Assembly: GCA_965369915.1 (NCBI GenBank)
Contig: CBDUSK010000001.1
Coordinates: 1-27,307, forward strand
Length of the DNA: 27,307 nt
Direction: 5' to 3'
Origin: an uncultured Phycisphaerae bacterium
Lineage (GTDB): Bacteria; Planctomycetota; Phycisphaerae; Sedimentisphaerales; Anaerohalosphaeraceae
Positions 10,346 to 27,307 of this stretch are shown in pieces (within the stretch, counting starts at the first letter, position 1; each line of letters starts with the position of its first letter). The notes under the pieces are model-generated. The model saw only the letters and a list, made by a program, of their open reading frames with translations. It was not told where the DNA came from and ran no database searches. A program made the position numbers and the translations under genes.

Positions 10346-10385
10346 GCCCAAAGCACCGTGTTTTCTTTGCCGGTTAGTATCTGAC

Positions 10386-11173: not shown

Positions 11174-11204
11174 AGTTTACTTTGTTCTCAAGATATGATA
11201 CAAT
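11174..11204. promoter_or_regulatory. Candidate overlapping divergent sigma70 promoters for uvrA (+) and nfi (-)
   Basis: Plus strand: TTTACT (11176-11181), 17 nt, TACAAT (11199-11204), with TG at 11196-11197 as an extended -10. Minus strand: TTGTAT (11203-11198), 18 nt, TAAACT (11179-11174). Motif match only. Confidence 0.55.
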
Positions 11205-11215
11205 CGTAAAATCGG

Positions 11216-11240
11216 CTTATTGCAGAAATTGTGCAATAAG
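11216..11240. promoter_or_regulatory. Inverted repeat CTTATTGCA-N7-TGCAATAAG, candidate operator or 5'-UTR hairpin upstream of uvrA
   Basis: Perfect 9-bp arms at 11216-11224 and 11232-11240, flanked by the direct repeat TACAATCGTA at 11199-11208 and 11241-11250. The sequence pattern is certain; function is not. Confidence 0.55.
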
Positions 11241-11278
11241 TACAATCGTACTAACCGCAGGGAGCAGGTGTAAAAAAA

Positions 11279-14134
11279 GTGCAAAAAGTGATCAGGATAA
11301 TCGGTGCCAGCGAGCATAACCTGAAGAACATAAATATTGACATTCCCCGCGACAAACTCATAGCCGTCACCGGCATAAGCGGGTCGGGAAAAAGCAGTCT
11401 GGCTTTCGATACGGTCTATGCCGAGGGACAGCGCAAATACGTCGAATCGTTAAGCGCTTACGCCAGGCAGTTTCTCGAGCAGATGCAAAAGCCTCATGTC
11501 GAACACATCGAAGGGCTCCCCCCGACGATCGCGATCGAACAGAGAAGTGCCAGCAGCAATCCGCGTTCGACGGTCGCCACGACCACGGAGATATATGATT
11601 ACTGCAGGGTTCTGTTCGCCCGGGCTGGAGAGCCTCATTGCTGGAAGTGCGGAGCGGCGATAACCAGCCAGCATTCTTCACAGATCGTGGACTCGATCCT
11701 TAGCCGGCCTGAAGGTACGAAGATCCAGATATGCGCCATGCTTATCCGGGGCCAGAAGGGCGAACACAGGGAAGTCTTTGCCAGGGTGCAGCGCGAAGGT
11801 TTTGTCCGTGTCCGTGTGGACGGGAGGATCTACGATATCAGGAACTCACCTGCGCTGGACAAAAACAAAAAACATGATATCGCAGCAGTCGTCGACCGGC
11901 TTATCATAAAAGATTCGATCCGTATCCGATTAGCTGATTCTATAGAAACAGCCCTGAAGATCGGGGAAGGCCTGATAGCGGTAATGGTCCAGGAACCGCA
12001 CGACAACAAGGCAGGCGCCGGCAACGGCGACTGGAAAGATGTTATCTACAGTGAGAAATTTGCCTGCACCAGGCATCCGGAGGCTTCGCTGGAAGAACTT
12101 TCGCCCAGATTGTTCAGCTTTAACAGTCCGTACGGCGCCTGCAAAAGCTGCGACGGGCTCGGGACAATTCTTGAGTTCGACCCCGACCTCATCGCCCCGG
12201 ACAAGACAGTTTCTCTTGAGAACGGCGCGATAGATGCGTGGCGAAAAGGCGGCAAGCGGATGAACATTTATTACAACCGGCTGATAAAGAGATTCTGCAG
12301 GAATTTCGAAATAAGCAAGAAAACGCCTTTCGATAAACTGAGCGTCCGGGTCAGAAAGATACTGCTTTACGGTACGTCGGCGGCGGACGAAAAAAAATAC
12401 GGCTACTCTTTCGAAGGGGTGATCCCAAACCTGGACCGACGATGGCAAAAAACCACCAGCGTATATGTAAAGGCAAGACTGCACAGCTATCTTTCGGAAC
12501 AGTCCTGCCGGAGCTGTAAGGGCGCAAGGCTTCGCCCCGAGGCGATAGCGGTTACGGTTGGCTCTAAAAGCATCAGTGAAATCACCGGGATGAGCATCGA
12601 ACGGGCTCAGAAATTTTTCAGCAGAGTTAAATTTGATGCCGAGAAAACTTTGATCGCCGTCCAGCCGCTCAAGGAAATAAAGGCCAGATTAAAGTTTATG
12701 GTCGATGTCGGATTGGGCTATCTGACTCTCGACCGGATGAGCAGAACGATGTCCGGCGGGGAAGCCCAGAGGATCCGTCTGGCCACGCAGGTAGGCAGCG
12801 GCCTGGTGGGCTGCTGCTATGTTCTTGATGAGCCGACGATCGGATTGCACCGAAGAGACAACAAGCGTCTGCTCGGGATCCTGCGGAGACTTACCGATAT
12901 CGGCAACACCGTCATCGTGGTCGAGCATGATGAAGATGTCATCGAACACGCTGACCATATCATCGATATCGGTCCGGCGGCCGGTGCCCGCGGCGGAGAA
13001 GTCGTCGTTACCGGAACACTGAAAGATATCTGCCAATGCCAAGAGTCGATCACCGGCAAATATCTCAGCGGCGAAAATCGTATCGAACTTCCGGCGCAAA
13101 GACGAAAATACAGCTTAAGGCGGTGTATCGAGGTAAAACAGGCCTGCGAAAACAATCTAAAGAGTATCAGTGTCAAATTCCCCGTCGGCATCTTTACCTG
13201 TGTAACGGGCGTATCCGGCTCGGGCAAGAGCACGCTGGTGACCGAGATACTGCTCAAGGGCCTGAAACGCAGGATCTACAGCTCACGCCAAAGACCCGGC
13301 AAGCATAAAACGATCCTCGGCATTTCGTACATCGATAAGGTCATCGAGATAGATCAATCTCCTATCGGCAGGACGCCTCGAAGCAACCCGGCTACTTACA
13401 CCGGAGTTTTTGATCTTATCAGGCAGCTCTTTGCCATGACAAGAGAGTCGAAGATCCGCGGGTACAAGCCCGGCAGGTTCAGCTTTAATGTCAAGGGCGG
13501 CCGGTGTGAGCATTGCCAGGGCCAGGGTACAAAAAAGATAGAGATGCACTTTCTGCCGGACGTCTATGTTGTCTGTCAGCAGTGCAAGAGTAAGAGGTAT
13601 AACCCCGAGACGCTGCAGATAACTTACAAGGGCAAGAACATCGCCGATGTGCTCGACATGAGGATCGAAGATGCCCGTCAGTTTTTCGCAAACTTCCCGA
13701 AGATAATGCGGCATATCAAGGCCCTTTACGATGTCGGCCTGGGGTATATGACGCTGGGCCAGTCTTCCACGACGCTTTCAGGCGGTGAGGCCCAGCGGGT
13801 CAAGCTTGCTTCCGAATTAGGCAAGCCCAACACAGGCCATACGTTGTTCCTGCTTGATGAGCCTACAACGGGCCTGCATTTCGCGGATATTCATAATCTG
13901 ATGAACGTACTTCGCAGGCTGTGCGACCTGGGCAATACGGTCGTGGTGATAGAGCATAATCTTGACGTTATTAAGATGGCCGATTATATAATCGACCTTG
14001 GCCCCGAAGGCGGAGACGCAGGCGGCAAAGTGATAGCGACAGGTCCGCCGGAGGAGATCATAAAAGTCAAAAACAGCTATACCGCAAAATACCTGAAGAA
14101 AAAGTTAAAGGCCGAAACAAAGCAGTTCTCATAA
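11279..14134 (+). CDS. uvrA: Excinuclease ABC subunit A
   Basis: GTG start. Two ABC ATPase modules (GISGSGKSS, GVSGSGKST), SGGEAQR signatures, LDEPT, CxxC zinc fingers, IDQSPIGRTPRSNPATY. Confidence 0.98.
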   Translation: MQKVIRIIGASEHNLKNINIDIPRDKLIAVTGISGSGKSSLAFDTVYAEGQRKYVESLSAYARQFLEQMQKPHVEHIEGLPPTIAIEQRSASSNPRSTVATTTEIYDYCRVLFARAGEPHCWKCGAAITSQHSSQIVDSILSRPEGTKIQICAMLIRGQKGEHREVFARVQREGFVRVRVDGRIYDIRNSPALDKNKKHDIAAVVDRLIIKDSIRIRLADSIETALKIGEGLIAVMVQEPHDNKAGAGNGDWKDVIYSEKFACTRHPEASLEELSPRLFSFNSPYGACKSCDGLGTILEFDPDLIAPDKTVSLENGAIDAWRKGGKRMNIYYNRLIKRFCRNFEISKKTPFDKLSVRVRKILLYGTSAADEKKYGYSFEGVIPNLDRRWQKTTSVYVKARLHSYLSEQSCRSCKGARLRPEAIAVTVGSKSISEITGMSIERAQKFFSRVKFDAEKTLIAVQPLKEIKARLKFMVDVGLGYLTLDRMSRTMSGGEAQRIRLATQVGSGLVGCCYVLDEPTIGLHRRDNKRLLGILRRLTDIGNTVIVVEHDEDVIEHADHIIDIGPAAGARGGEVVVTGTLKDICQCQESITGKYLSGENRIELPAQRRKYSLRRCIEVKQACENNLKSISVKFPVGIFTCVTGVSGSGKSTLVTEILLKGLKRRIYSSRQRPGKHKTILGISYIDKVIEIDQSPIGRTPRSNPATYTGVFDLIRQLFAMTRESKIRGYKPGRFSFNVKGGRCEHCQGQGTKKIEMHFLPDVYVVCQQCKSKRYNPETLQITYKGKNIADVLDMRIEDARQFFANFPKIMRHIKALYDVGLGYMTLGQSSTTLSGGEAQRVKLASELGKPNTGHTLFLLDEPTTGLHFADIHNLMNVLRRLCDLGNTVVVIEHNLDVIKMADYIIDLGPEGGDAGGKVIATGPPEEIIKVKNSYTAKYLKKKLKAETKQFS

Positions 14135-14160
14135 AGTGTTAAACGCCCAAGGAGTAAAAA

Positions 14161-15228
14161 ATGGATTTTGAAACACTAAAGTGGATCGGTGACACAAAAG
14201 GCTCCCTGGAGCTTACGGACCAGAGGCTGCTTCCCGGGCAATACAAAAAGCTTCGGTGTGAAACCATCGAACAGCTTTATGATGCTATTTTGACGCTTGC
14301 GGTAAGAGGTGCTCCTGCGATCGGCGTCGCCGCGGGGTACGGCATCTGCCTTGCCATGCAAAGTTTTGTGGGCAACGGATCAAAGAATGCGGTATCACAT
14401 CTTGAAAAAAACGCAGACTATCTTGCCGGATCCCGCCCCACCGCGGTAAACCTTTTCTGGGCGCTGGAGAGGATGAAGACTTCCGCGAAAAAATTCATCG
14501 CCGAAAACACGGGCGCATCGGTTGCCGAGCTACGTCAGGCCCTGCTTACCGAAGCTCATGCCGTATGCAAAGAAGACCGGGACATGTGCAAGGCCATAGG
14601 GGTTAACGGCGAAAAATTCATCAGGGAAAACTCCGGGATACTTACCCATTGCAACGCCGGCGCTCTTGCAACTGCCGGGCAGGGGACGGCTCTTTCGCCG
14701 ATGTACGAAGCTTACGCAGGCGGCAGAAAGTTCAGGGTCTATGTCGATGAGACCAGGCCCTTATTGCAGGGTGCCCGCCTCACCGCGTGGGAACTTACCC
14801 GGGCGGGTATCGATGCGACATTGATCTGTGACAACATGGCCGGGGTCCTGATGAAACAGGGCAAGATCGACACCGTAATAACCGGTGCCGACCGGATCGC
14901 GGCCAACGGCGATACCGCCAACAAGATCGGAACGTTCAGTTTGAGCATCCTGGCTAAAGAACACGGCATACCGTTCTATATCGCTGCCCCTTCGAGCACA
15001 TTTGACCTTAAGATAAAGACAGGTGCCCAAATTCCGATCGAGCAAAGAAACGCCGACGAGATCACTTCGTTTGGGAAAACCAGGATTGCACCGAAGGATA
15101 TTAACGTTTATAATCCGGCGTTCGATGTGACGGACGCTGAGAACATAACCGCAATAATAACCGAAAAAGGTGTTATTGAAAAACCGGACACTGAAAAAAT
15201 CAAAAGTCACCTGAAAAAACGGCGATAA
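14161..15228 (+). CDS. mtnA: S-methyl-5-thioribose-1-phosphate isomerase
   Basis: DQRLLP, VRGAPAIG, SRPTAVNL, LTHCNAGALAT, ETRPLLQGARLTAWEL, GADRIAANGDTANKIGT, NPAFDVT. SD AAGGAG. Confidence 0.96.
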   Translation: MDFETLKWIGDTKGSLELTDQRLLPGQYKKLRCETIEQLYDAILTLAVRGAPAIGVAAGYGICLAMQSFVGNGSKNAVSHLEKNADYLAGSRPTAVNLFWALERMKTSAKKFIAENTGASVAELRQALLTEAHAVCKEDRDMCKAIGVNGEKFIRENSGILTHCNAGALATAGQGTALSPMYEAYAGGRKFRVYVDETRPLLQGARLTAWELTRAGIDATLICDNMAGVLMKQGKIDTVITGADRIAANGDTANKIGTFSLSILAKEHGIPFYIAAPSSTFDLKIKTGAQIPIEQRNADEITSFGKTRIAPKDINVYNPAFDVTDAENITAIITEKGVIEKPDTEKIKSHLKKRR

Positions 15229-15262
15229 ATACTAAGTCAATCGAATTTATGTAGGAATACAG

Positions 15263-16312
15263 ATGAAAGTTCTTTTTGATGTGGTACATCCTGCTCAGGT
15301 GCATTTTTTCAAAAACGCTATTGGTCTGTTAAAAGAGCGAGGCGACGAGGTGGTGGTAACTGCTCGCAAAAAGGATGTTACTATCGATCTTCTCAACACA
15401 CTGAACATAGAACATACTTGTATAAGCCGGAAAGGATCGAACCTTATCGCTATGGGCTTTGAGCTTCTTTGGCGTGACTTAAAGCTTATAAAGATCGTGC
15501 GCCGATTCAAGCCTGACGTAATGGTCGCACGCGTCGGTGTTTCAGTCGGACCAGTAGGAAAGCTTATGGGAATTCCAACAGTCGTATACGATGACATGGA
15601 ACACGCAAAGCTTCAGGGGGCAATCGGCATGACGTTCGCCACTTATATTTGTACGGGCCTGGGTTATTATCGTGATTTTGGCAAACGACACATAAGGTTT
15701 AGGGGTCCGCCCGTGCTTGCTTATATGGGGCCGAAATATTTCCAGCCTGACCCGAAACCTTTAAGACAAGCAGGTCTTGACCCCGACAAACCGTACATCT
15801 TTATAAGGACTGTATCGTGGGGTGCAAGTCATGATGTCGGGAGAAAAAGAAGCTCGGAAAATCGGATCACAAAAATTGTCGACAGACTTTCAAAGTTTGG
15901 CAGGATTGTCATAAGTTCAGAGGAATCGCTAAGCGGTGATTTTGCTCAGTACAACAACCCTGTTCCGGTCGAGAAGATGCACAGTCTTTTGGCTTTTGCG
16001 TCACTTTGTATTGTCGAAGGCGGAACCATGGCGGAGGAAGCGGCTACCCTTGGCGTTCCGGTTGTGTGTCTTGGCACGTACGACTTTGGTTACCTGCGTG
16101 CACTTGAGAACGAATACCAAATGATCTTCCGACCTGGGTCGATAGACAAGGCTGTAGATATTGCAGAAGAGCTTTTAAAGGATGCCGATACGTCCGAGAT
16201 ATGGCGAGAGAAACAGCAAAGGCTTCTTGCCGACAGCAACGATGTTACAGAGTTTATGGTTAAGATGATAAATCGTGCCGCTAGAGAGCATCCGGTCGAA
16301 AGAAAAAAGTAA
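15263..16312 (+). CDS. DUF354 / COG1817-type protein, predicted GT-B glycosyltransferase-like
   Basis: MKVLFDVVHPAQVHFFK..TARKKDVTIDLL, VVYDDMEHA, FIRTVSWGASHD, EGGTMAEEAATLGVP, recognised from memory of the family. Confidence 0.75.
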   Translation: MKVLFDVVHPAQVHFFKNAIGLLKERGDEVVVTARKKDVTIDLLNTLNIEHTCISRKGSNLIAMGFELLWRDLKLIKIVRRFKPDVMVARVGVSVGPVGKLMGIPTVVYDDMEHAKLQGAIGMTFATYICTGLGYYRDFGKRHIRFRGPPVLAYMGPKYFQPDPKPLRQAGLDPDKPYIFIRTVSWGASHDVGRKRSSENRITKIVDRLSKFGRIVISSEESLSGDFAQYNNPVPVEKMHSLLAFASLCIVEGGTMAEEAATLGVPVVCLGTYDFGYLRALENEYQMIFRPGSIDKAVDIAEELLKDADTSEIWREKQQRLLADSNDVTEFMVKMINRAAREHPVERKK

Positions 16313-16415
16313 AACCATACTGGAACTCAGTGTGAAGAACAAAAGATTACGAACGTATTTAGCAAAAATCACTGATACGCCGGTTTATTGCTGTTTAAGC
16401 GGCAGTAAAAAACAT

Positions 16416-16443
16416 TTGCAAAATTCGAGAAATGGACTAAACT
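16416..16443 (+). promoter_or_regulatory. Candidate sigma70 promoter for the glycan locus
   Basis: TTGCAA (16416-16421), 16 nt, TAAACT (16438-16443) in the 211-nt spacer before legB. SD GGAGG at 16511-16515. Confidence 0.3.
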
Positions 16444-16523
16444 AAACGAATCTAAACTGTGGTTTTTCAGGCACTTAAAGAGGCCTCAAAACCATGTAAG
16501 GTCTCTAAACGGAGGTTTGTATA

Positions 16524-17501
16524 ATGAAAGTTTTAGTAACGGGAGCCGGGGGCTTTATCGGTTCCCATCTTGTCGAGACACTTATCGAGCGAGGGTATGC
16601 GGTAAGAGCGTTTGTGAAATACAATTCCAGGAACGATTGGGGTTGGCTGGAGCAGATACAGGCTAAAAATAAAATTGAAGTAGTTTCTGGAAATATCCGC
16701 GATTATGATTTTGTATCGGATTCTATAAAGGGATGCGATGGGGTTTTTCATTTAGCAGCCCTTATAGGCATTCCGTATTCATATGTTTCGCCTCTTGCCT
16801 ATATCCAAACAAACATTGTTGGAACCTATAACATTCTCCAGGCTTCTAAGGAACACCAATTAGATAATATTCTTATTACATCTACGAGTGAGACTTATGG
16901 TACCGCACAATATGTTCCTATTGACGAAAGCCATCCAAAAGTCGGTCAGTCGCCTTATTCTGCTACAAAGATATCTGCAGATCAGTTGGCTATCAGCTAT
17001 CACAGGGCGTATGGGTTACCTGTAAAGATTGTCAGGCCCTTTAATACTTACGGCCCCCGCCAATCTGCCAGAGCTATCATTCCAACTATCATTACACAGC
17101 TTTTATCCGGCAAAAAAGAAATAGAACTCGGCGATTTATCTCCCACGCGGGATTTGCTGTTCGTAAAGGACACTGCCAATGGTTTTATAGAAATAGCTGA
17201 ATCTTCTAAGACAGCGGGGGAAGAAATAAATATAGCGACTCAGAGCGAAATATCGATGGGCGATTTAGCCCAAAAGTTAGTTAATATGATCAACCCGAAA
17301 GCGGCAGTAATCAAAGATGCCAAAAGAATTCGGCCCGAAAACAGCGAAGTCGAAAGATTGCTGGGGAGCAACGAGAAGATAAAAAACCTAACTAACTGGC
17401 AACAAAAATATGATCTTGATAAAGGCTTAAGCGAAACCGTGGAGTGGTTCAAAAACAATAAGACCTTGAAGTTGTATAAGCCGGATATTTATAATGTGTA
17501 G
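16524..17501 (+). CDS. legB: LegB-type NAD-dependent NDP-GlcNAc 4,6-dehydratase (extended SDR)
   Basis: TGAGGFIGSHL, YNSRNDWGWL, FHLAALIGIPYSY, STSETYGTA, YSATK, RPFNTYGPRQSARA. Confidence 0.85.
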   Translation: MKVLVTGAGGFIGSHLVETLIERGYAVRAFVKYNSRNDWGWLEQIQAKNKIEVVSGNIRDYDFVSDSIKGCDGVFHLAALIGIPYSYVSPLAYIQTNIVGTYNILQASKEHQLDNILITSTSETYGTAQYVPIDESHPKVGQSPYSATKISADQLAISYHRAYGLPVKIVRPFNTYGPRQSARAIIPTIITQLLSGKKEIELGDLSPTRDLLFVKDTANGFIEIAESSKTAGEEINIATQSEISMGDLAQKLVNMINPKAAVIKDAKRIRPENSEVERLLGSNEKIKNLTNWQQKYDLDKGLSETVEWFKNNKTLKLYKPDIYNV

Positions 17502-18600
17502 GAACATATTCTTGGATGCCCCTAATGTAGGGGGGCTGGAAAAGGAATACCTTAACAAGGCTATCGATACCGGTTTTGTGTCCACTGTAGGACCATTTGT
17601 TCCGGAATTTGAGGAAAAACTGGCTGAATTCTTAGGTGTCGAAAAAGCCGTTTCGACACAAAGCGGAACCGCGGCACTGCACACCTCACTTTATGAATTA
17701 GGTATTGAAGAGGGAGACGAAGTAATTGTGCCGGCTCTTACGTTCGTGGCTACTGTGAACCCAATACTTTATGTTGGAGCAAAACCGATTTTTGTAGACG
17801 TAGATATTAAAAGCTGGAACATTGATCCTGGAGAAATCCAAAAGCATATTACCAAAAATACTAAAGCTATAATACCTGTTCATCTGTTTGGAAATCCTTG
17901 TGATATGGATGTGATAATGGATATTGCCCGAAAACACGAGCTATATGTTATAGAAGATGCAACGGAAAGTTTGGGGGCTAAATATAAAGGCAAATATACC
18001 GGAACTTTTGGAGATCTAGGTTGTTTAAGTTTTAACGGCAATAAAATCATTACCACCGGCGGAGGCGGCATGATAGTGGGCAGTGACCCGAAAAGACTGG
18101 ATCATGTGAAATTTCTTGTAAATCAGGCAAGGGATGAGTCCAAGGGCTATTTCCATCCAGAGATGGGCTTTAATTACAGGATGACGAACATAGAGGCTGC
18201 TATGGGACTTGCTCAAATGGAAAAGCTCGATGGCTTTTTAGACAAAAAAAGGACTTTCAACAAAATCTATAAGGAAGAGTTAAATGATTTGGGATCTATT
18301 TCTTTTCAGGCCGAATGCGAAGGCGCAGAAAGCTGCTGGTGGCTGACTTGTATTGTTTTTGAAAACGAAATGGGCATAGCCGGGCTGCAAGGAAAATTAA
18401 AAACATATGGAATTCCTACTCGAAGGGTATTTGTGCCTGCAACGGACTTTCCTCCATATAAAGATTACAAAGAAGCTGAACTTGCAAATTCTTTTTCTAT
18501 TTACGAAAGAGGATTATGTTTGCCGTGTTCAACACGGAATTCTGAAGACGATATATATTATGTTTGCGAAAAATTCAAAAAACTGGTTAGCAAGAATTGA
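17494..18600 (+). CDS. legC: LegC-type PLP-dependent sugar aminotransferase (DegT/DnrJ family)
   Basis: GFVSTVGPFV, TFVATVN, IEDATESLG, SFNGNKIITTGGGG (PLP Lys), GFNYRMTNIEAA. Overlaps legB by 8 nt. Confidence 0.85.
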   Translation: MCRNIFLDAPNVGGLEKEYLNKAIDTGFVSTVGPFVPEFEEKLAEFLGVEKAVSTQSGTAALHTSLYELGIEEGDEVIVPALTFVATVNPILYVGAKPIFVDVDIKSWNIDPGEIQKHITKNTKAIIPVHLFGNPCDMDVIMDIARKHELYVIEDATESLGAKYKGKYTGTFGDLGCLSFNGNKIITTGGGGMIVGSDPKRLDHVKFLVNQARDESKGYFHPEMGFNYRMTNIEAAMGLAQMEKLDGFLDKKRTFNKIYKEELNDLGSISFQAECEGAESCWWLTCIVFENEMGIAGLQGKLKTYGIPTRRVFVPATDFPPYKDYKEAELANSFSIYERGLCLPCSTRNSEDDIYYVCEKFKKLVSKN

Positions 18601-18602
18601 TT

Positions 18603-19238
18603 ATGAAGAAGAATATTATTTTAATCGGCGGCGGCGGACACTGTAAGTCATGCATAGACGTGATAGAATCAGGGGATGAATTTAAAGTAGTGGGCATAGT
18701 TGACAAAAAAGAGAAAATGTCCCTGAAAGTATCGGGCCACGAGATCATAGCCTGCGACGAAGATTTACCTGAATTAGTCAAGGAATATGAATATTATCTA
18801 ATAACGATCGGACAAATAAAAAGTGCCTTCAAAAGAGTTAAGAAATTCGAATTCATAAAAGAATTAGGGGGAAAGTTTCCGACAATCATATCTCCTTTAT
18901 CATACATTTCGAAGTCAGCTGTTGTTGGAGAAGGAACTATTGTAATGCACAATGCCATTATAAACACCGAGGCATGTGTAGGGAAAAACTGCATAATCAA
19001 TACAGCGGCTATCATTGAACATGAATCGCGAATTATGGACCATTGCCATATATCAACGGGTGTTGTCATAAATGGAGAAAACTTCATAGGCGAGAGCACT
19101 TTTATTGGAAGCAACAGTGTTACCGCAAACAATATTACCATAGAAAGCAATACGGTGCTTGGTGCGGGTTCTTTTGTCAGTAGATCACTCGAAGAAAGCG
19201 GAACTTATGCCGGAAACCCGGCGAGAAAAATTGGATAA
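18603..19238 (+). CDS. PglD/NeuD-family hexapeptide acetyltransferase, probable amino-sugar N-acetyltransferase (alternative TTG start 18597)
   Basis: LIGGGGHCKSC, LITIGQI, left-handed beta-helix repeats with IIEHE, YAGNPA. Confidence 0.85.
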   Translation: MKKNIILIGGGGHCKSCIDVIESGDEFKVVGIVDKKEKMSLKVSGHEIIACDEDLPELVKEYEYYLITIGQIKSAFKRVKKFEFIKELGGKFPTIISPLSYISKSAVVGEGTIVMHNAIINTEACVGKNCIINTAAIIEHESRIMDHCHISTGVVINGENFIGESTFIGSNSVTANNITIESNTVLGAGSFVSRSLEESGTYAGNPARKIG

Positions 19239-19240
19239 GC

Positions 19241-20245
19241 ATGAGTAAGACCTTTATTATAGCTGAGGCCGGAGTTAATCATAACGGCAGTATTGAGTTG
19301 GCCACCCGGCTTATTGATGTTGCGGTTGATGCCGGTGCTGATGCGGTAAAATTTCAAACTTTTAAAGCAGAAAACATTATAAGTAAACACGCGCCAAAGG
19401 CAGATTATCAGCAGGAAACAACAGACAAGGGCGAATCCCAGCTTGAAATGGTCAGAAAGCTGGAACTTGGTGAAGCTGAGCATAAAACGCTGATAGAACA
19501 TTGCAAAGAAAAAGGCATTATGTTCATGTCGGCGCCTTTTGATCTGGAAAGCATAGACCTACTTTCCGAACTTGGACTTGAAATCATGAAAATTCCTTCC
19601 GGAGAAATAACGAATTTACCTTATTTAAGAAAAATCGGTAGTTTGGGTAAACGTATTATTATGTCTACAGGGATGGCAGATTTAAAGGAAATAGAGGATG
19701 CACTTAATATTTTACTGCAATCCGAAACAGATAGAACCAATATAACAATACTACATTGCAATACCGAATATCCTACACCTTTTGAGGACGTGAATTTGTC
19801 GGCTATGCTTACTATCAAAGATGCGTTGAATGTGAACGTGGGCTACTCCGACCATACGCTTGGAATAGAAGTGGCAATTGCAGCAGCGGCTTTGGGAGCC
19901 GACGTGATCGAGAAACATTTTACTCTCGATAAGACTCTGCCTGGACCGGACCACAAGGCGTCTTTGGAGCCGGGTGAACTTAAAGCCATGGTCCAGGCGA
20001 TAAGAAATATTGAAAGATCACTTGGAGACGGGATAAAAAAACCAAGTTCCAGCGAGATAAAAAATATAGCGGTTGCACGGAAGAGTATAGTTGCCAAAAA
20101 ATGCATCAATAAAGGTGAAGTATTTACTACTGACAACATTACAAGTAAGCGGCCGGGGACGGGAGTTAACCCAATGGAATGGGATAACGTAATAGGAAAG
20201 GCAGCGAAAGGAGATTTCGCAGAAGACGAGATGATAGAATTATGA
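19241..20245 (+). CDS. neuB: Canonical NeuB-family nonulosonic acid synthase, probably N,N'-diacetyllegionaminate synthase (LegI)
   Basis: IIAEAGVNHNG, AVKFQ, KIPSGE, MSTG, HCNTEYPT, GYSDHT, IEKHFT, GPDH, C-terminal SAF domain with KRPG. Confidence 0.92.
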   Translation: MSKTFIIAEAGVNHNGSIELATRLIDVAVDAGADAVKFQTFKAENIISKHAPKADYQQETTDKGESQLEMVRKLELGEAEHKTLIEHCKEKGIMFMSAPFDLESIDLLSELGLEIMKIPSGEITNLPYLRKIGSLGKRIIMSTGMADLKEIEDALNILLQSETDRTNITILHCNTEYPTPFEDVNLSAMLTIKDALNVNVGYSDHTLGIEVAIAAAALGADVIEKHFTLDKTLPGPDHKASLEPGELKAMVQAIRNIERSLGDGIKKPSSSEIKNIAVARKSIVAKKCINKGEVFTTDNITSKRPGTGVNPMEWDNVIGKAAKGDFAEDEMIEL

Positions 20246-21429
20246 AAAGAAAGATTTGCATTGTTACCGGCTCAAGAGCAGAGTATGGCCTTTTAAGGCC
20301 TCTGCTTAAAGAGGTAAGTGTAGATCCCGAGTTGACACTTCAGCTTGTGGTAACGGGAATGCATCTTTCAGAAGAATTTGGTTCGACATACAAAGAAATA
20401 GAAAGCGACGGTTTTAACATTGATGAAAAGATTGACATAGGACTCCATTCAGACACACCTACTGGAATTGCTGAGTCCATGGGATTGGCTATGAGTGGAT
20501 TTGCCAAGGCATATGATCGTGTCCGGCCGGACATCGTTGTTGTTTTAGGTGATCGATTCGAGATTTTTATTGCCGCCGCCGCCGCTACAGTAAGCAGGTG
20601 CCATATTGCACATCTCCACGGGGGAGAGCGTACCGAGGGTGTTATTGATGAAGTGTTTCGTCATTCCATTACAAAAATGAGCCACCTGCACTTTACTTCT
20701 ACACAAGAGTATCACAGGAGAGTTGTTCAATTAGGAGAAAACCCTAACAGGGTCTTTAATGTTGGCGCTATCGGGTTGGATAATATCAAGGAACTGAAAT
20801 TGTTATCCAGGAAAGAGCTGGAAAAGAAACTGAATTATAAGTTCGGCAGCAAAAACCTACTGGTAACTTTCCACCCCGTTACGTTGGAAGATAATACTTC
20901 AGGAGAACAATTTCAAATTTTACTTGATGTCTTAAATGGTTTAAAGGACACAAATATTATTTTTACGAAATCAAATGCTGATACGGGAGGAAGAGCGATC
21001 AACAACATGATCGATGAGTACACGTTAAACAACTCTGAAAACACCCTGTATTTTACTTCCATGGGCCAGCTTTTATATTTGTCGACATTGCAGTTTGTTG
21101 ATGCGATGGTAGGAAACTCGTCGAGTGGTATCATAGAGGCTCCGAGCTTTAAGATCGGAACAATTAATATTGGAGATCGGCAGAAGGGAAGGATAAAGGC
21201 TGAAAGTATAATAAATTGCCAGCCGTTAAAGGATGATATTAACAAGGCTTTTCAAAAGCTCTATTCTAAAGAATTCCAGAAAATCCTGAAAAACGTTGAA
21301 AATCCATATGGCACCGGAGGAGCGGCAAAAGAGATAAAGGAAATACTGAAAAAATATGATCTGTGCGATGTTTTAAAGAAAAACTTCTATGATATAAATT
21401 TTGATATAGGAGATATTGATGTTGCTTAA
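20242..21429 (+). CDS. neuC: Hydrolysing NDP-diNAc-bacillosamine / UDP-GlcNAc 2-epimerase (NeuC/LegG)
   Basis: KICIVTGSRAEYG, TGMHLS, VLGDRFE, HLHGGE, RHSITKMSH, VTFHPVT, GNSSSG, RQKGR, NPYG. ATGA overlap with neuB. Confidence 0.92.
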   Translation: MKRKICIVTGSRAEYGLLRPLLKEVSVDPELTLQLVVTGMHLSEEFGSTYKEIESDGFNIDEKIDIGLHSDTPTGIAESMGLAMSGFAKAYDRVRPDIVVVLGDRFEIFIAAAAATVSRCHIAHLHGGERTEGVIDEVFRHSITKMSHLHFTSTQEYHRRVVQLGENPNRVFNVGAIGLDNIKELKLLSRKELEKKLNYKFGSKNLLVTFHPVTLEDNTSGEQFQILLDVLNGLKDTNIIFTKSNADTGGRAINNMIDEYTLNNSENTLYFTSMGQLLYLSTLQFVDAMVGNSSSGIIEAPSFKIGTINIGDRQKGRIKAESIINCQPLKDDINKAFQKLYSKEFQKILKNVENPYGTGGAAKEIKEILKKYDLCDVLKKNFYDINFDIGDIDVA

Positions 21430-22498
21430 AGATATTCTGATCCATAAGTCAGATTCTACAAAAAAAACGCTAAAAAGACTGGACAAAACAGCCGTCAAAG
21501 CTTTGCTTGTTGTAGACAAAGACAACAAACTGCTTGGAGCGATCAGCGACGGGGACATCAGACGCCATATACTAAAAGGCAATAGCCTTGAGGGCGATAT
21601 CAGCGAGATATACAACAAAAGTCCCATTTATATACGAAAAGAAGAACTCTCGATGGAATCGGTAAAAAAGCTGCTTGTCCGGTACAAGATAGAATTGATA
21701 CCGGTTTTAGACAATGAACATAAGGTTGTAGAGTATATAACATGGGACCAATTATTCCCTGAATCAGAGCAACCCCCGTTCAAAAAGAGCCGGATAGATA
21801 TTCCGGTTGTCATTATGGCCGGCGGAAAAGGATCACGCCTGGAGCCGTTTACTAAAATTCTCCCCAAGGCATTGATCCCGGTTGGCGATAAGCCTATTAT
21901 CGAAATGATTATAGATGAATTCAAACAGCAGGGAGTAGAAAAATTTTATCTGACACTAAACCACAAAAGCGAGATGATAAAAGCATACTTTAAGGGCATT
22001 GAAAAAGAGTATAAAGTAAACTATATCAAAGAAAAAACTTTTCTCGGAACAGCAGGCAGTTTGAAACTACTTGAAAACAAAATCAGCGATACTTTTATTG
22101 TTTCAAATTGTGACATTATTGTTAAAGCAAATTTTGAAAATGTACTGGCGCTCCATCAGGAACAAAAAGCCTCGTTAACGATCCTCTCTTCTGTTCAGCA
22201 TTATGAAATTCCATATGGAGTGATAAATCTTAAAGAGGGTGGGGAAGTTGCGAATATCCTTGAGAAACCGGAATATACATTTACGATTAATACCGGTGTA
22301 TATGTTCTAAATAAAGACACCTTAGATTTTATTCCGGCCGACTCACATATGGATATGACCGAGTTGATCAAGATCCTGGCCAAAAACGGTAAAAAAATTC
22401 TCACGTATCCCGTGAATGAAAAAGAATATTTAGATATTGGCCAATGGAAAGAATATAAAAAAGTCTTACAATATTTCCGTGAACAGGAAACAAAGTAA
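21419..22498 (+). CDS. CBS-domain sugar-1-phosphate nucleotidyltransferase (PtmE/LegX-like, probable GlcN-1-P guanylyltransferase)
   Basis: N-terminal CBS pair (GAISDGDIRR), MAGGKGSRLEPFTKILPKAL, LGTAGSL, SNCDI, DIGQ. ATG 21419 follows AGGAGA; alternative TTG at 21416. Confidence 0.85.
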   Translation: MLLKDILIHKSDSTKKTLKRLDKTAVKALLVVDKDNKLLGAISDGDIRRHILKGNSLEGDISEIYNKSPIYIRKEELSMESVKKLLVRYKIELIPVLDNEHKVVEYITWDQLFPESEQPPFKKSRIDIPVVIMAGGKGSRLEPFTKILPKALIPVGDKPIIEMIIDEFKQQGVEKFYLTLNHKSEMIKAYFKGIEKEYKVNYIKEKTFLGTAGSLKLLENKISDTFIVSNCDIIVKANFENVLALHQEQKASLTILSSVQHYEIPYGVINLKEGGEVANILEKPEYTFTINTGVYVLNKDTLDFIPADSHMDMTELIKILAKNGKKILTYPVNEKEYLDIGQWKEYKKVLQYFREQETK

Positions 22499-22522
22499 TT
22501 TAACAATGGCAGGGCCGTTTTC

Positions 22523-23599
22523 ATGAAGAAAAAACAGGAACCATATATTATTGGAGAAACCGCATATAATCACGAAGGAGACGCTGGCTACTTGTATAAA
22601 ATGATAGAGGAGATAGTCGAAATCGGATTAAATGCGGTAAAGTTTCATTTGTTATTGAATCCAGAAAGTTACTTACAGAAAAAACATCCCTTGATTTCCG
22701 AGATCAAAAAATGGATTTTTGATAAAAAACAGTGGGATGCAATTATTAACCATTCGAATAAAAATGGACTGGACGTAGTCACGTTATGCGATGATGTTGA
22801 GTCTTTGGAGTTTATTAATAAAAGCGGATTGGATGTATACGCTGTGGAGTTGCACGCCACCGGACTGAATGACTGGTTCTTGCTTGAAGAAGCGACGAAT
22901 TTTAACGGGCCGGTTTTTTTGGGGGTTGGCGGTTCGTCAATCGACGAAATTGCATACGCAGTGGATTTTCTGAAAAGCAGGCAGAAGAGTAAGATTGTTT
23001 TGATGTACGGGTTCCAGAACTATCCGACTGATTACGCTAACATTAATCTTTCCAAAATGCTCAAGATGGCTAACTTATTCGATCTGCCCGTAGGATATGC
23101 GGACCACACGGCATTTGATGATTCAAACAACGAAGTTGTCAGCACTATGGCTGCGATGATGGGCTTTAATATTTTAGAAAAACACTACACACCGGATTTC
23201 GGTAAGAAACGAATAGATTATCATGCCGCAGTGGGAAAAGAACAGATGTTGAGGATAAAAGAATTGATGAAATTGGCATTGATGGTTTATGGCAACGGCG
23301 AGATAAAAATGTCGACACCTGAACTGGAATACGGCAATACGGGTCCCATGAAAAAAGCCATAGTTGCAAAAAGAAATATCAAAAGAGGAGAAAAACTTTC
23401 GCTGGAGAACCTCTGCTTTAAAAGAACCCAACAGCAAAGCCCTTTAAAGCAGAACCAGTTTTTGCAGTTAATCGGGCTCAAAGCAGATAAAGACATTGAT
23501 GAAGATGAAATAATTGATTTCTCCAAAGTCCACTATGAGTTTAAAAAAGCCGACCTGGAAAAGTTTACATATTTAAACGATGCCGGAGAGCAGCAATGA
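22523..23599 (+). CDS. Second, strongly divergent NeuB-family protein (TIM barrel plus SAF domain)
   Basis: IIGETAYNHEG, AVKFH, NYPT, GYADHT, LEKHYT, KKAIVAKRNIKRGE, FKR. The fold is clear; several catalytic-site motifs differ from the upstream NeuB. Confidence 0.85.
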   Translation: MKKKQEPYIIGETAYNHEGDAGYLYKMIEEIVEIGLNAVKFHLLLNPESYLQKKHPLISEIKKWIFDKKQWDAIINHSNKNGLDVVTLCDDVESLEFINKSGLDVYAVELHATGLNDWFLLEEATNFNGPVFLGVGGSSIDEIAYAVDFLKSRQKSKIVLMYGFQNYPTDYANINLSKMLKMANLFDLPVGYADHTAFDDSNNEVVSTMAAMMGFNILEKHYTPDFGKKRIDYHAAVGKEQMLRIKELMKLALMVYGNGEIKMSTPELEYGNTGPMKKAIVAKRNIKRGEKLSLENLCFKRTQQQSPLKQNQFLQLIGLKADKDIDEDEIIDFSKVHYEFKKADLEKFTYLNDAGEQQ

Positions 23600-24396
23600 A
23601 GATAGGTTTTTTGATCACGGCAAGATTAAAGTCCTCAAGATTGCCCCTGAAAATACTGAAAGATCTAAACGGCAGGACGGTTACAGAAAGGATCATAGAT
23701 AGGTGCAAAGAGGTCCACGGTGTTTCGCAGATCGTTCTTTGTACTTCACCTAATCCCCAGGACAAAGCCCTGGCAGAAGTCGCCAAAAAGAATGGGATAT
23801 CATGTTTTTTAGGGGATGAGGATGATGTTCTCAAGAGGCTTTTGGATGCTTCAATTTTGCATGAGCTGGATTATTTTATTGGTATTACCGCGGACAATCC
23901 CCTGTTTTCGATTTATTATTCAAATTTAATAGCGGATATGATAAACACCGAAGGCCATGATTTTATTAAAGTGCAGGGCCTTCCGCTTGGAGCGGCCACA
24001 TACGGGATGAACGTCAAGGCTTTGGCCACGGTGTGCGAGATCAAAACCATAGTCGATACGGAGATATGGGGATATCTTATCGATCGGCCGGAAGTTTTCG
24101 ATATCAAAACGATCCAGGCCAAAGCGGCACTTAACAGGCCTGAGCTTAGGTTTACGCTGGATTATGAAGAAGACTATGAATTCTTAAACAATATCTATAC
24201 AAATGTTCCTTTTGAAAAGGTGATCAAACTGGACGATGTGATGGACTACCTGAACAAGAATCCCGAGGTAGTAAGGATAAACCAAAAGTGTGTTCAGCGA
24301 GACCTGGACCAGGAGACAAAAGATAAAATAAACGCCCTTTATCTCGAACGAACTGACGAGGTCAGAGAAATAAAAACGAGAATCTATAAAAAATGA
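23596..24396 (+). CDS. SpsF-type acylneuraminate / 3-deoxy-ulosonate cytidylyltransferase family protein
   Basis: ITARLKSSRLPLKIL, GDEDDVLKR, ITADNPL, RFTLDYEED. ATGA overlap with the upstream gene. Confidence 0.85.
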   Translation: MKIGFLITARLKSSRLPLKILKDLNGRTVTERIIDRCKEVHGVSQIVLCTSPNPQDKALAEVAKKNGISCFLGDEDDVLKRLLDASILHELDYFIGITADNPLFSIYYSNLIADMINTEGHDFIKVQGLPLGAATYGMNVKALATVCEIKTIVDTEIWGYLIDRPEVFDIKTIQAKAALNRPELRFTLDYEEDYEFLNNIYTNVPFEKVIKLDDVMDYLNKNPEVVRINQKCVQRDLDQETKDKINALYLERTDEVREIKTRIYKK

Positions 24397-25622
24397 AGCC
24401 GAAAATAGTTTTTATCCCTACACACTGGTATTTATCCAATCCTGTTTTTTTTAGTGTGGCTAAAGAATTTAGGGAGAGATTCCACACGGTTTACTTCAAT
24501 ACGAAGGACCCTGTATTTTCCAGGCACAGCGAAAAAAACATTAAAAAAGAAGAAGTTCTCGAATATTTTGACGAGTACGAGGTAATAGATGAATCGCCCC
24601 TTTTAAGCAAAAGCCGCGGTGTAATGGGAAAGATGCGTTGCTTCAAAGACCAAAAGCCCCGGCTGGAGAGGCAGTTAAAACGACTTGCACCAGATGCAAT
24701 CGTATCTACGAGCGATTCAAGCGGGTATATAAACAGGTTCTGCAATATCTGGGCGGAGAAGAAAAAGATCCCCTTCATAGTGATCCAGCCGTCTTTTATA
24801 AAGGTTAAAAGGGAAAAGAACCCGCTGAAAGAACGCATAGGATATTTGCTTTTTAACGTACTGCTGGACATGCCGTTCTGTCGAAAGCAGAAAGTTTTTG
24901 GAAATGAACGTTCGGGCAATTACCTTTTTGTATGGGGGGAGTTTTTTAAAAATTTCTACAAGGGACTTGAGGTCGAAAAGCATACTTACGTTACGGGCAA
25001 CCCGGCTTTTGACAGGATCCTGAAAACAGCATCTAACGCACACATCCCGGAAAATATAGGTGTCAATATTCCTCACGGAAAGCCGATAGTAACGATATGT
25101 ACCCAGCCGCTTGAAACGCTGCTCAGTGAAAGAGCCTGCGGACTGGTGAATGATTTCTACAGATTTGCCATCAAGGAAAATCCGGACCTGTTTTTTATTG
25201 TTAAGATCCATCCAAGAGAAAATATAGAAAAATATAACGCCATCTTAGAGGGCATAGACACAAAGAATTATATTATTGCAAAGGATGTTAACCTGTATGA
25301 AGTATTTAAGGCAACGGATCTGCAAATGTCGGTTTCGTCGTATACTTCTTTTGAAGCAGTAGTTTTCGGGATACCCATTGTTGTGATAAACCCTCAAAAC
25401 CTTGTAACGCTTCCGGACCACTTCAATAACGAGATCGAGCTGAAAGCAACTACGACAAATGAACTTAAAAAAAATCTTGTAAAGGCTCTTACCGAAGAAT
25501 ACCGGCAGGAGTTTAACGTAAAACGACAAAAATACCTTGAATCAAGGATCGGCTATCTCGACGGAAATAGCAGTGAAAGAACAGCAAAAAAAATTGAGGA
25601 TATTATTATGCTGAAAAAATGA
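24393..25622 (+). CDS. GT-B fold transferase of unassigned family, candidate nonulosonate (sialyl-type) transferase
   Basis: FVWGE, VTGNPAFD, IVKIHPRE (HP motif), SSYTSFEAVVFGIPIVVIN, DGNSSER. ATGA overlap with the cytidylyltransferase. Confidence 0.6.
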   Translation: MKPKIVFIPTHWYLSNPVFFSVAKEFRERFHTVYFNTKDPVFSRHSEKNIKKEEVLEYFDEYEVIDESPLLSKSRGVMGKMRCFKDQKPRLERQLKRLAPDAIVSTSDSSGYINRFCNIWAEKKKIPFIVIQPSFIKVKREKNPLKERIGYLLFNVLLDMPFCRKQKVFGNERSGNYLFVWGEFFKNFYKGLEVEKHTYVTGNPAFDRILKTASNAHIPENIGVNIPHGKPIVTICTQPLETLLSERACGLVNDFYRFAIKENPDLFFIVKIHPRENIEKYNAILEGIDTKNYIIAKDVNLYEVFKATDLQMSVSSYTSFEAVVFGIPIVVINPQNLVTLPDHFNNEIELKATTTNELKKNLVKALTEEYRQEFNVKRQKYLESRIGYLDGNSSERTAKKIEDIIMLKK

Positions 25623-25765
25623 GTTGATTTTAAATGTTATTAAACGTATTTTGTAGAAGAAAGCTTTGATGGATTTCTAGTAAAATAAGAATAAAGGTTC
25701 TAGTGTTTTGGATTTTCTTACCTTAGGTATAATTATTATGTTTTTAAACATACTGATAGGATGAT

Positions 25766-26494
25766 ATGAATAGAATAAAAACGGCTGTAATTCTAGCGGG
25801 GGGTGCAGGTACAAGAATGAATCCTTGTACTGGAAAGAAGCTAAGACCAGACAGACCGAAACCGATGATTGAAATAGCTGGCAAGCCAATACTTCACTGG
25901 ATTCTCGAGAAATGGTTGTCTGCCTACGAGATTAGCCATGTCGTTTTTGGAGTTGCGTATAAAAAAGAGTTCCTTATCGACTATTTCACAACAAATAATA
26001 TGGGTATGAAAATCGATTTTAGTGAGCACTCTGTTGAGGGGGGAACAGGTGAAGGATTCAAAAAGGCCATAAGTAGATTTGTGAATGACGAAGTTTTCCT
26101 TGCAATGAATGGCGATGAATTGACAAATTTAGACATTAACAAATTAGTTGAATCTCATGTTCAAAACGATGGCATTGCAACGATAGTTACGGCTCCTCTT
26201 AAAGCATCATATGGTGTATTGGCAATAGATGAACATAATACAATAACAGGCTTTCACGAAAAACAAGCATGCCATGATATTCCTGTAAGTGCAGGCATAT
26301 ATGTGTTTAACCGAGAAATTGTTGATTATATACCCTCTACAGGATCAATAGAAAGAGTAACTTTTCATGATCTTGCTAAAAAGAAATTATTGAAGGCATA
26401 TCGATTACCTATTAATAAAAAATGGTTTACAGTGAACAATCTGAAGCAGCTTGAAATAACAAAGAAAGAAATAGTTACTTTATGGAGTACTTAG
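25766..26494 (+). CDS. Sugar-phosphate nucleotidyltransferase (NTP_transferase family)
   Basis: AVILAGGAGTRM, PKPMIEIAGKPIL, GGTG, MNGDELT, YGVL, SAGIYVF. Confidence 0.88.
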   Translation: MNRIKTAVILAGGAGTRMNPCTGKKLRPDRPKPMIEIAGKPILHWILEKWLSAYEISHVVFGVAYKKEFLIDYFTTNNMGMKIDFSEHSVEGGTGEGFKKAISRFVNDEVFLAMNGDELTNLDINKLVESHVQNDGIATIVTAPLKASYGVLAIDEHNTITGFHEKQACHDIPVSAGIYVFNREIVDYIPSTGSIERVTFHDLAKKKLLKAYRLPINKKWFTVNNLKQLEITKKEIVTLWST

Positions 26495-26495
26495 A

Positions 26496-27307
26496 ATGGA
26501 AAAAGTATTAATTACAGGAATAACCGGTTTCATTGGTGGGGAACTAGCCCATAAACTTATATCAAAATACGAAGTGCATGGAATTGCAAAACAATGTAGA
26601 TCAAGAAACACAAGCTCTCTTAAAGATATTGTCAAAGAAGTCATCGTGCACGAAGTAGATATAACAGATTATATGTCAATAGAAAGCCTGATAAACAGAA
26701 TAAAACCAGATAAAATAGTACATCTTGCGGCTTTATCTCCTGTCAGAGCTTCCTTCGAACACCCATTGGACTATAATCGAGTGACAGCAACAGGAACGAT
26801 TCATATAGCACATGCGCTGCATAGCCTTAGTGATTATAAAAACCGAAGACTCATTGTTGCGTCAACAGCAGAAGTATATGGGCTACAACCAAAAGACGAA
26901 CCCTATACAGAGAATTTGGCACTTTTTCCCTCCAGTCCTTATGCATGCGCAAAAGCATATAGTGATTTATATATGAGAATGATGATAAATGTATATGATA
27001 TTAATTGTGTTATCTTGAGATGTGTAAATACTTATGGCAGGAAATACGACAAAAGTTTTTATATCGAATATATTATTAATAAAATGCTGAAGAGCGAAGA
27101 AATATATATAGGTGCGCCCAATTCAATCAGGGATTATATGTATGTTGATGATCACGTTAATGCCTATTTATTAGCAATAGAATCGCCAAATGCAAAAGGG
27201 CATGTTTTCAATGTATCTACTGGTTTTGGTATAAGCAACAAAGATACTGCTTTAAAAATTGCTGAAATTATTGGATACGATAAGAACAGATTACACCTTG
27301 GAGAGTA
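26496..27307 (+). CDS. Extended-SDR NDP-sugar 4,6-dehydratase/epimerase (GDP-mannose / dTDP-glucose dehydratase-like), truncated by the window end
   Basis: Absent from the ORF track because it has no stop. My translation from ATG 26496 (GGAG at 26484-26487): MEKVLITGITGFIG, HLAALSPV..SF, ASTAEVYG, YACAK, LRCVNTYG, RDYMYVDD, FNVSTG. Open to 27307. Confidence 0.9.
   Translation, partial: MEKVLITGITGFIGGELAHKLISKYEVHGIAKQCRSRNTSSLKDIVKEVIVHEVDITDYMSIESLINRIKPDKIVHLAALSPVRASFEHPLDYNRVTATGTIHIAHALHSLSDYKNRRLIVASTAEVYGLQPKDEPYTENLALFPSSPYACAKAYSDLYMRMMINVYDINCVILRCVNTYGRKYDKSFYIEYIINKMLKSEEIYIGAPNSIRDYMYVDDHVNAYLLAIESPNAKGHVFNVSTGFGISNKDTALKIAEIIGYDKNRLHLGE

Follow-up and report, generated by a model that had tools for sequence, protein, structure and literature searches.

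Nonulosonic acids serve as decorations on flagella, capsules, S-layers and spores, and both phage recognition and immune recognition are shaped by them. In the textbook pathway to legionaminic acid (Leg), the ending is formed by LegI followed by LegF. We analyzed a 27,307-nucleotide stretch of DNA from an uncultured Phycisphaerae bacterium (GenBank assembly GCA_965369915.1, contig CBDUSK010000001.1, positions 1 to 27,307; hereafter the window) that carries three adjacent genes: a divergent paralog with NeuB and SAF domains (NeuB2, 22523–23599), an SpsF-type cytidylyltransferase (CT, 23596–24396) and a transferase with a His-Pro (HP) motif (24393–25622). An earlier interpretation of the letters alone (the sequence-only reading) took this trio for a self-contained make-activate-transfer module that serves a second 2-keto-3-deoxy acid sugar alongside Leg. 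We find that the trio is the downstream end of one nine-gene operon, and that the unit conserved among its relatives is the NeuB2–CT pair. The trio very likely constitutes the terminal, Leg-dependent part of a single pathway, wherein CT is the activating enzyme. Taken as a whole, one Leg operon with CT as its activator and NeuB2 as a conserved paralog is the explanation that we regard as probable.

The Leg pathway that Schoenhofen et al. reportedly described in 2009 for Campylobacter jejuni uses LegI, LegF and PtmE in a guanosine diphosphate (GDP)-GlcNAc route to cytidine monophosphate (CMP)-Leg5Ac7Ac. LegB, LegC, LegH, LegG, LegI and a CBS-nucleotidyltransferase are shared between that pathway and the window. 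Unlike the C. jejuni pathway, the window has no NeuA-type LegF and carries an SpsF-type enzyme and NeuB2 instead.

A second relevant system is the spore-crust Leg pathway of Bacillus subtilis, wherein a NeuB-family gene (spsE) is likewise followed by an adjacent gene for an SpsF-type (COG1861) cytidylyltransferase (Dubois et al. 2020, PMC7439481). Genetic analysis places SpsF after Leg synthesis; in the spsF mutant, Leg is still made and is not deposited on spores (PMC7439481). SpsE is canonical (K-I-A-S-Y-E motif) and is the only NeuB of its pathway, whereas the window has a canonical LegI as well. The LegI of the window matches the SpsE structure (PDB 1VLI) with 192 bits, compared to 51 bits for NeuB2, and the CT-linked paralog departs from SpsE by K129E, His131 and other changes.

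The trio is the tail of one operon

The basic description given in the sequence-only reading was borne out. The trio comprises open reading frames (ORFs) at 22523–23599, 23596–24396 and 24393–25622, all on the + strand, which encode proteins of 358 (NeuB2), 266 (CT) and 409 (transferase) amino acids. ATGA start/stop overlaps are read at 23596–23599 and 24393–24396. A gap of 24 nucleotides (nt) separates the trio from the preceding gene, which ends at 22498, and another of 143 nt from the following gene, which starts at 25766. Profile matches and an invariant HP motif likewise agree with the identities proposed for the three proteins. The same reading regarded the chained genes as set off from their surroundings, and this part does not stand, because similar overlaps occur elsewhere in an operon that runs from legB to the transferase gene:

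16524–17501, + strand: legB, NAD-dependent 4,6-dehydratase, first gene of the operon (TIGR04180, 479 bits, cut-off 475)
17494–18600, + strand: legC, aminotransferase (TIGR04181, 430 bits, cut-off 420)
18597–19238, + strand: legH/neuD-type N-acetyltransferase (TIGR03570, 194 bits, cut-off 161; PglD_N and Hexapep domains)
19241–20245, + strand: legI, canonical nonulosonate synthase with NeuB and SAF domains (TIGR03569, 523 bits, cut-off 400, exactly 399.65)
20242–21429, + strand: legG/neuC-type hydrolyzing 2-epimerase (TIGR03568, 492 bits, cut-off 236)
21416–22498, + strand: ptmE-like gene, CBS and sugar-1-phosphate nucleotidyltransferase domains (PF00571 and PF00483)
22523–23599, + strand: NeuB2, paralog with NeuB fold and SAF domain and a rebuilt phosphoenolpyruvate (PEP) pocket (PF03102, PF08666, residue pattern, AlphaFold2 model and Foldseek)
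23596–24396, + strand: SpsF-type cytidylyltransferase, candidate CMP-legionaminate synthetase (PF02348, 52.5 bits; cytidine triphosphate (CTP)-binding motifs; match to PDB 6OEW)
24393–25622, + strand: GT-B transferase with HP motif, candidate nonulosonate transferase (C-terminal domain of NF046086, 100.6 bits; TIGR04396)

From legB to the transferase gene, the successive junctions measure −8, −4, +2, −4, −14, +24, −4 and −4 nt; that between legB and legC is −8, that between legC and legH is −4, and that between legI and legG is −4 with an ATGA overlap. G+C content is 38–42% over this interval, and 51% in the housekeeping genes at 1–15228 (SSB, L9, DnaB, BamA, LpxD, LpxC-FabZ, LpxA, UvrA and MtnA). 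A promoter and terminator scan of positions 15000–27307 gave no signal dividing the trio from the leg genes. With overlaps and uniform G+C content running from legB to the transferase gene, the trio is the downstream end of one nine-gene operon at 16524–25622 rather than a unit set apart.

All catalytic and PEP-site residues of the LegI encoded in the window are canonical. The PtmE-like enzyme, judged by its domains, probably supplies the GDP-linked precursor, and its gene directly precedes NeuB2 in most of the related loci described below.

NeuB2 and CT form the conserved unit

A large protein collection holds 789 relatives of NeuB2, wherein the top 120 share 66–99% identity with the window protein; identity across phyla is 65–77%, and 174 cluster representatives are recovered at E<1e-30. 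The comparison covered 25 non-redundant loci whose flanks were usable, drawn from at least seven phyla, including Planctomycetota, Aerophobetes, Pseudomonadota, Bacteroidota, Bacillota, Campylobacterota, WOR-3 and Methanomicrobia. CT lies beside NeuB2 in every one of them (25/25), with one extra gene between the two in loci L019 and L020. Within 10 kb of NeuB2 are a canonical NeuB in 24/25 loci, a NeuC-type gene in 21/25 and a PtmE-like gene in 19/25. The HP-motif transferase is present in only 6/25 loci; conversely, NeuB2–CT is found in all six contexts examined for transferase homologs. Thus, the co-occurrence expected by the sequence-only reading holds for the NeuB2–CT pair and fails for the full trio, and the conserved unit is the pair.

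Independence from leg-type genes, the other expectation of that reading, was also checked and is not seen. The single locus that has no canonical NeuB within 10 kb (L015) belongs to a genome with canonical NeuBs on other contigs. With this association, and with the trio kept in so few loci, a second sugar made alongside Leg is not supported. What remains of the proposed module is that its genes are functionally coupled and that activation followed by transfer is a sound assignment for the second and third genes; its self-contained character is not supported.

These findings point to a widespread alternative ending of the Leg pathway, wherein LegF is replaced by an SpsF-type enzyme invariably partnered with a remodeled NeuB paralog. 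Metagenomic proteins that belong to this ending number in the hundreds and come from Planctomycetota, Bacteroidota, Bacillota, Campylobacterota, candidate phyla and methanogens. The distribution of NeuB2 is patchy: a sample of 300 other genomes from the phylum of the window contained no NeuB2, and only canonical NeuBs were matched there (97 bits or less); for co-occurrence, this sample is uninformative. Cultured carriers include Kriegella aquimaris DSM 19886, Flagellimonas ochracea, Marinisporobacter balticus and Methanocalculus chunghsingensis, which make the role of NeuB2 directly testable.

NeuB2 has a preserved metal site and a rebuilt PEP pocket

NeuB2 is composed of a TIM barrel and a C-terminal SAF domain (PF03102, 107.8 bits; PF08666, 27.7 bits), and it scores well below the synthase equivalogs (155 bits vs 399.65 for TIGR03569; 105.6 vs 340.25 for TIGR03586, the PseI model). 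Its AlphaFold2 model has a pLDDT of 93.6. Foldseek matches this model to Neisseria meningitidis NeuB (1XUU, TM score 0.78; see also 1XUZ) and to C. jejuni PseI (8H2C, TM score 0.80), with which it shares the barrel-plus-SAF architecture and residues His215, His236, Glu25, Lys53, Asp247 and Arg314. It differs from these enzymes by an identity of only 18–20%, by replacement of six PEP-surrounding positions, by a 5-residue insertion after the DHT motif, by a new invariant Arg two residues before Asp247 and by a C-terminal tail of about 25 residues.

Residues were mapped by aligning NeuB2 with the LegI proteins of the same loci and numbering positions on N. meningitidis NeuB via PDB alignments. 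By this mapping, NeuB2 retains Glu25, Lys53, Tyr186, Asp214, His215, Glu234, His236, Asp247 and Arg314, and the metal ligands His215 and His236 (H195 and H221 in the window protein) are kept across the NeuB2 clade. Positions 110, 129, 131, 132, 182 and 184 surround PEP in a region that is conserved among the synthases for neuraminic acid, Leg and pseudaminic acid (Pse) (PMC7371886), and Lys129, Thr110, Asn184 and Ser213 are among the listed active-site residues of NeuB (PMC6795526). All six PEP-surrounding positions are replaced in NeuB2 (T110L, K129E, 131H, S132A, 182G and 184Q), and the window protein additionally carries S213A. Changes seen across the alignment include F112D/N, S132A/S/P, E134G/C/S, S154G, H181Y, C182G, Gln at position 184 and, in most sequences, Q55H. 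The altered pattern holds across the NeuB2 family, whereas LegI proteins of the same loci are canonical.

In window numbering, K40, H111, Q165, D194, H195, E219, H221, R230 and D232 are invariant in the family and E109 is nearly so; E109-x-H111 and R230 mark the rebuilt pocket. A tree of 189 domains (FastTree, midpoint root) places 100 of the 101 E/D-x-H sequences in one clade, apart from all forms with Lys129 (supports 0.88 and 0.97), and we regard this clade as old. An ESM Atlas search returned only “NeuB family” labels.

Judged from these alignments and the predicted fold, NeuB2 is a folded paralog under strong constraint, with its metal site preserved and the canonical PEP pocket gone. Because this pocket is missing, NeuB2 is unlikely to be the ordinary “make” enzyme that the trio was thought to contain. 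Its current annotation as a sialic- or legionaminic-acid synthase is probably wrong, and it inflates counts of organisms thought to make two such sugars.

CT is the only visible candidate to activate the LegI product

CT matches CTP_transf_3 (PF02348, COG1861) with 52.5 bits against a gathering score of 22.6, and its relatives bear the SpsF name in JGI annotation. The best PDB match is 6OEW, a “cytidylyltransferase” (71 bits). The motifs ARLKSSRLPLK and TADNPL align with the KdsB motifs PARYASSRFRGK and QADEP, such that both the N-terminal Arg/Lys CTP-binding motif and the Asp-x-Pro motif are present. CT scores below the equivalog cut-offs for KdsB, NeuA and PseF: its matches to KdsB models are weak and N-terminal only (best subfamily score 47.6 bits vs 255), and the PseF profile gave no match.

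The assembly that contains the window (1.73 Mb, 310 contigs, 85% complete) has two NeuB genes in total, both inside the window. Its CTP_transf_3 members are KdsB (NF003952, 295 bits) and CT, the remaining matches being GlmU and MobA. A 2.9-Mb relative with the same synteny has one canonical NeuB, one NeuB2, KdsB and one SpsF-type enzyme. Likewise, Kriegella aquimaris, Flagellimonas ochracea and an Oceanihabitans species each have two NeuBs, KdsB and one SpsF-type enzyme. NeuB genes were counted in these five assemblies, with exactly two in each; for Aquimarina, we note that KdsB and an SpsF-type enzyme are the only CTP_transf_3 members. The strong CTP_transf_3 match in the four Bacteroidota genomes is KdsB by TIGR00466, at identical coordinates. 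Methanocalculus lacks KdsB, and its SpsF-type CT is the only clear CTP_transf_3 member besides one marginal match of 24 bits.

No second non-KdsB cytidylyltransferase that could serve Leg was thus found in the window's own assembly, at 85% completeness, or in five other genomes, which leaves CT as the only visible candidate for making a CMP-sugar from the LegI product. This result also counts against a separate sugar for CT, as it is what would be expected if CT simply activates Leg. Given its family and motifs, and with the B. subtilis spsF mutant as precedent, CT is a candidate to take the place of the missing LegF/NeuA and make CMP-legionaminate.

Proteins that fuse NeuB, SAF and CTP_transf_3 domains are common, and they support the view that CT-class enzymes act on NeuB products. 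We considered whether such fusions prove the link between NeuB2 and CT and rejected them for this purpose; the fused NeuB domains are K-type (K-H-S, with Lys129 kept) and lie outside the E-x-H clade.

The HP-motif transferase

In Tannerella forsythia, the attachment of Pse or Leg derivatives requires enzymes with the sialyltransferase HP motif (Tanf_01245/TFUB4_00887; Tomek et al. 2017, PMC5420450), and BFO_1060 is their strain-92A2 ortholog. The window transferase resembles them in its homologous HP-bearing C-terminal domain and in its location at a nonulosonate locus; it differs in that its N-terminal half is unrelated in sequence. The match to the BFO_1060 family (NF046086) is partial, wherein residues 250–405 align with positions 205–364 of the 365-position profile and the score of 100.6 bits is half of the cut-off (200). 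A match to TIGR04396, a “surface carbohydrate biosynthesis” family, is also obtained.

The HP motif is H273-P274, and K271, H273 and P274 are invariant in 30 homologs of this small family (51 matches). The AlphaFold2 model (pLDDT 87.4) has a GT-B fold, and its Foldseek neighbors are only generic GT-B proteins, namely UDP-GlcNAc 2-epimerases and GT1 enzymes (TM scores 0.55–0.62). A PDB sequence search with the transferase returned nothing significant (KpsC at E 0.79), and inspection of its sequence by eye only did not reveal a [DE][DE]G motif.

A 464/480-amino acid protein encoded ahead of NeuB2 in L037 and L039 was considered as a new partner and rejected, as it is a paralog of the transferase. 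A DUF354 protein of 349 amino acids is encoded at 15263–16312, 211 nt upstream of legB, and is kept with the cluster in syntenic relatives (72% in L008 and L012). Some HP-motif transferase homologs (P0165 and P0169) themselves carry the DUF354 label, and the protein may represent another GT-B enzyme encoded at this locus; it lacks the HP motif, and BLAST did not find similarity to the transferase.

A DUF386/YhcH neighbor in related loci

In eight related loci, from Flavobacteriaceae, Lutibacter and Bacillota, a DUF386/YhcH gene lies downstream of NeuB2–CT. It is directly adjacent in most of them and 3.5–5 kb away in two, and one representative is an E-x-H type NeuB2–DUF386 fusion. In Escherichia coli, the Zn protein YhcH (NanQ) opens the ring of Neu5Ac, and it supplies the aldolase NanA with the open-chain form (Kentache et al. 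2021, PMC8141875). The likeness is that of a DUF386/YhcH protein adjacent or fused to a presumed nonulosonate-binding protein. The E. coli system differs in serving catabolism, and its Schiff-base aldolase, NanA, has a different fold. By analogy, the DUF386 neighbors and the fusion suggest delivery of an open-chain substrate, and they favor action of NeuB2 on an open-chain, finished nonulosonate.

A proposed pathway and its alternatives

From gene order, family membership, residue patterns, co-occurrence and the absence of another cytidylyltransferase, we infer the following series of enzymatic steps, with that of NeuB2 put forward most conditionally. The PtmE-like enzyme, LegB, LegC, LegH, LegG and the canonical LegI would build the nine-carbon acid, as read from their families. 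NeuB2 would act on the product of LegI ahead of CMP activation, binding the open-chain nonulosonate and remodeling it by metal-dependent, aldolase-like chemistry such as a retro-aldol/aldol epimerization. CT, which is translationally coupled to NeuB2, would then activate the Leg isomer or derivative as a CMP-sugar, and the HP-motif GT-B enzyme would pass the activated nonulosonate to an acceptor. That NeuB2 is a catalytic remodeler of the LegI product is a tentative proposal, to which we give somewhat less than an even chance.

Several observations weigh against this pathway or parts of it. The retro-aldol idea is drawn entirely from analogy, and a DUF386 gene is absent from the window and from its assembly. 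SpsF of B. subtilis works with the canonical SpsE and no NeuB2, and so NeuB2 is not generally needed by SpsF-class enzymes. The fusions of NeuB to CT are K-type rather than E-x-H type, and L015 has no leg genes within 10 kb of NeuB2. With an assembly that is 85% complete, a LegF gene could sit in the missing part. Five or six loci (L015, L017, L025, L028 and L031/L032) hold a NeuA/LegF-type cytidylyltransferase in addition to the SpsF-type one, in two cases directly upstream of NeuB2. In L040 and L041, K-type NeuB–CT fusions adjoin a complete Leg set with its own 226-amino acid cytidylyltransferase. Two types of cytidylyltransferase would be redundant if the SpsF-type enzyme made only CMP-Leg, which suggests that the CMP-sugar formed through NeuB2 and CT may differ from CMP-Leg, at least in the five or six loci that have both types. 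Any such sugar most likely derives from the Leg pathway rather than from an unrelated one, and a Leg-derived variant may be the product of NeuB2 and CT.

If NeuB2 is catalytic, it would add a new reaction to sugar-acid biosynthesis. In its most specific form, which we consider rather unlikely, the proposal holds that NeuB2 represents a new enzyme family on the NeuB scaffold that performs no PEP condensation. It would instead use retro-aldol/aldol chemistry on open-chain Leg to form a stereoisomer, for example 4-epi-legionaminic acid, that CT activates, with delivery by a YhcH-type “openase” in some lineages. To our knowledge, an epimer-forming NeuB2, if it exists, would supply a missing biosynthetic step for Leg epimers.

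A different possibility, which we judge unlikely, is that NeuB2 is a non-catalytic partner that binds the nonulosonate and hands it to CT, or stabilizes or regulates CT, such that the pair replaces LegF. The strict adjacency and start/stop overlap with CT, the complementary occurrence of LegF and the pair of NeuB2 and SpsF-type CT in most clusters, and the loss of the PEP-contacting Lys129 all speak for such a partner. A mere scaffold, however, would not usually show a former active site that is so strongly and specifically conserved, with its metal ligands kept. Moreover, B. subtilis SpsF needs no partner of this kind, and an extra gene intervenes between NeuB2 and CT in L019 and L020.

More doubtful still is a second synthase, wherein NeuB2 would take the product of LegG, either as it is or with different N-acylation, and condense it with pyruvate or another three-carbon donor that is not PEP, to give an acid that CT activates. 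A change of donor would explain the rebuilt PEP pocket, and the NeuB fold, metal site, Glu25, Lys53 and Arg314 are all retained. Condensation from pyruvate is thermodynamically weak, however, and in genomes with a single cytidylyltransferase LegI would become redundant or its product would go unused, yet canonical LegI is kept in 24/25 loci.

The self-contained cassette for an unrelated 2-keto-3-deoxy acid sugar, with Leg handled separately, is improbable: modules of that kind do exist, as the K-type fusions beside a complete Leg set in L040 and L041 show, some NeuB2 loci have two kinds of cytidylyltransferase, and L015 carries NeuB2–CT with no leg genes nearby, but the trio itself includes no genes for precursor supply, NeuB2 has a canonical NeuB within 10 kb in all but one locus, the transferase is usually not kept, the six PEP-surrounding positions of NeuB2 are non-canonical, and the sugar made by LegI would never be activated in genomes that have no second cytidylyltransferase for it.

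Variant loci and fusions

Several relatives of NeuB2 and CT occur in unusual contexts. P0218 (963 amino acids) joins a canonical NeuB, a second NeuB-like domain and CT in a single chain, and P0314 (899 amino acids) joins a xylose-isomerase-like TIM barrel, NeuB and CT. In P0177 (808 amino acids), a 408-amino acid N-terminal region of no known family precedes an E-x-H NeuB2; this region was considered as a new NeuB2 partner and rejected, as it has no detectable relative.

In L015 (1479–5858), from a Planctomycetales metagenome-assembled genome, NeuB2–CT lies amid homologs of C. jejuni O-methyl-phosphoramidate genes, namely those for a PPDK-like kinase, a C26 amidase, an NTP_transf_3 protein and an APS-kinase-like protein. 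This region further encodes a sulfotransferase, an Ldh_2 protein, an HpcH/HpaI aldolase and two additional CTP_transf_3 proteins. In L040 (11818–14576), a TARA marine scaffold, genes resembling those for ATP-citrate lyase or citryl-CoA enzymes (ATP-grasp_2/Citrate_bind, CoA ligase and Citrate_synt) directly follow the NeuB–CT fusion, a hint of either an unusual ulosonic acid or decoration with an acidic acyl group.

GFO_IDH_MocA and short-chain dehydrogenase genes follow NeuB2–CT in L010 (11844–13629) and L038 (6163–9990). This arrangement resembles the Acinetobacter baumannii ElaA/ElaC pair, which is proposed to epimerize CMP-Leg at C8 (PMC13656337). In L030 (8061–9971), the “LegI” ORF is 636 amino acids long and a separate NeuC-type gene was not detected in the locus; this ORF may be a NeuC–NeuB fusion.

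Other features of the window

G+C content falls from 51% (1–15228) to 35–42% across the sugar genes, with the change at about 15200–16500. Four genomes from the same family did not show the leg/NeuB2 cluster. The drop in G+C content fits a horizontally mobile surface-glycan island.

Past the 143-nt gap, a nucleotidyltransferase gene (glucose-1-phosphate cytidylyl/guanylyl-like) and a 4,6-dehydratase gene occupy 25766–27305. At 35–36% G+C they are more AT-rich still, and they start a further deoxyhexose pathway that continues beyond the end of the window. Among the housekeeping genes, an LpxC-FabZ fusion is encoded by a single 436-amino acid ORF at 7144–8454, inside a run of lpxD, lpxC-fabZ and lpxA.

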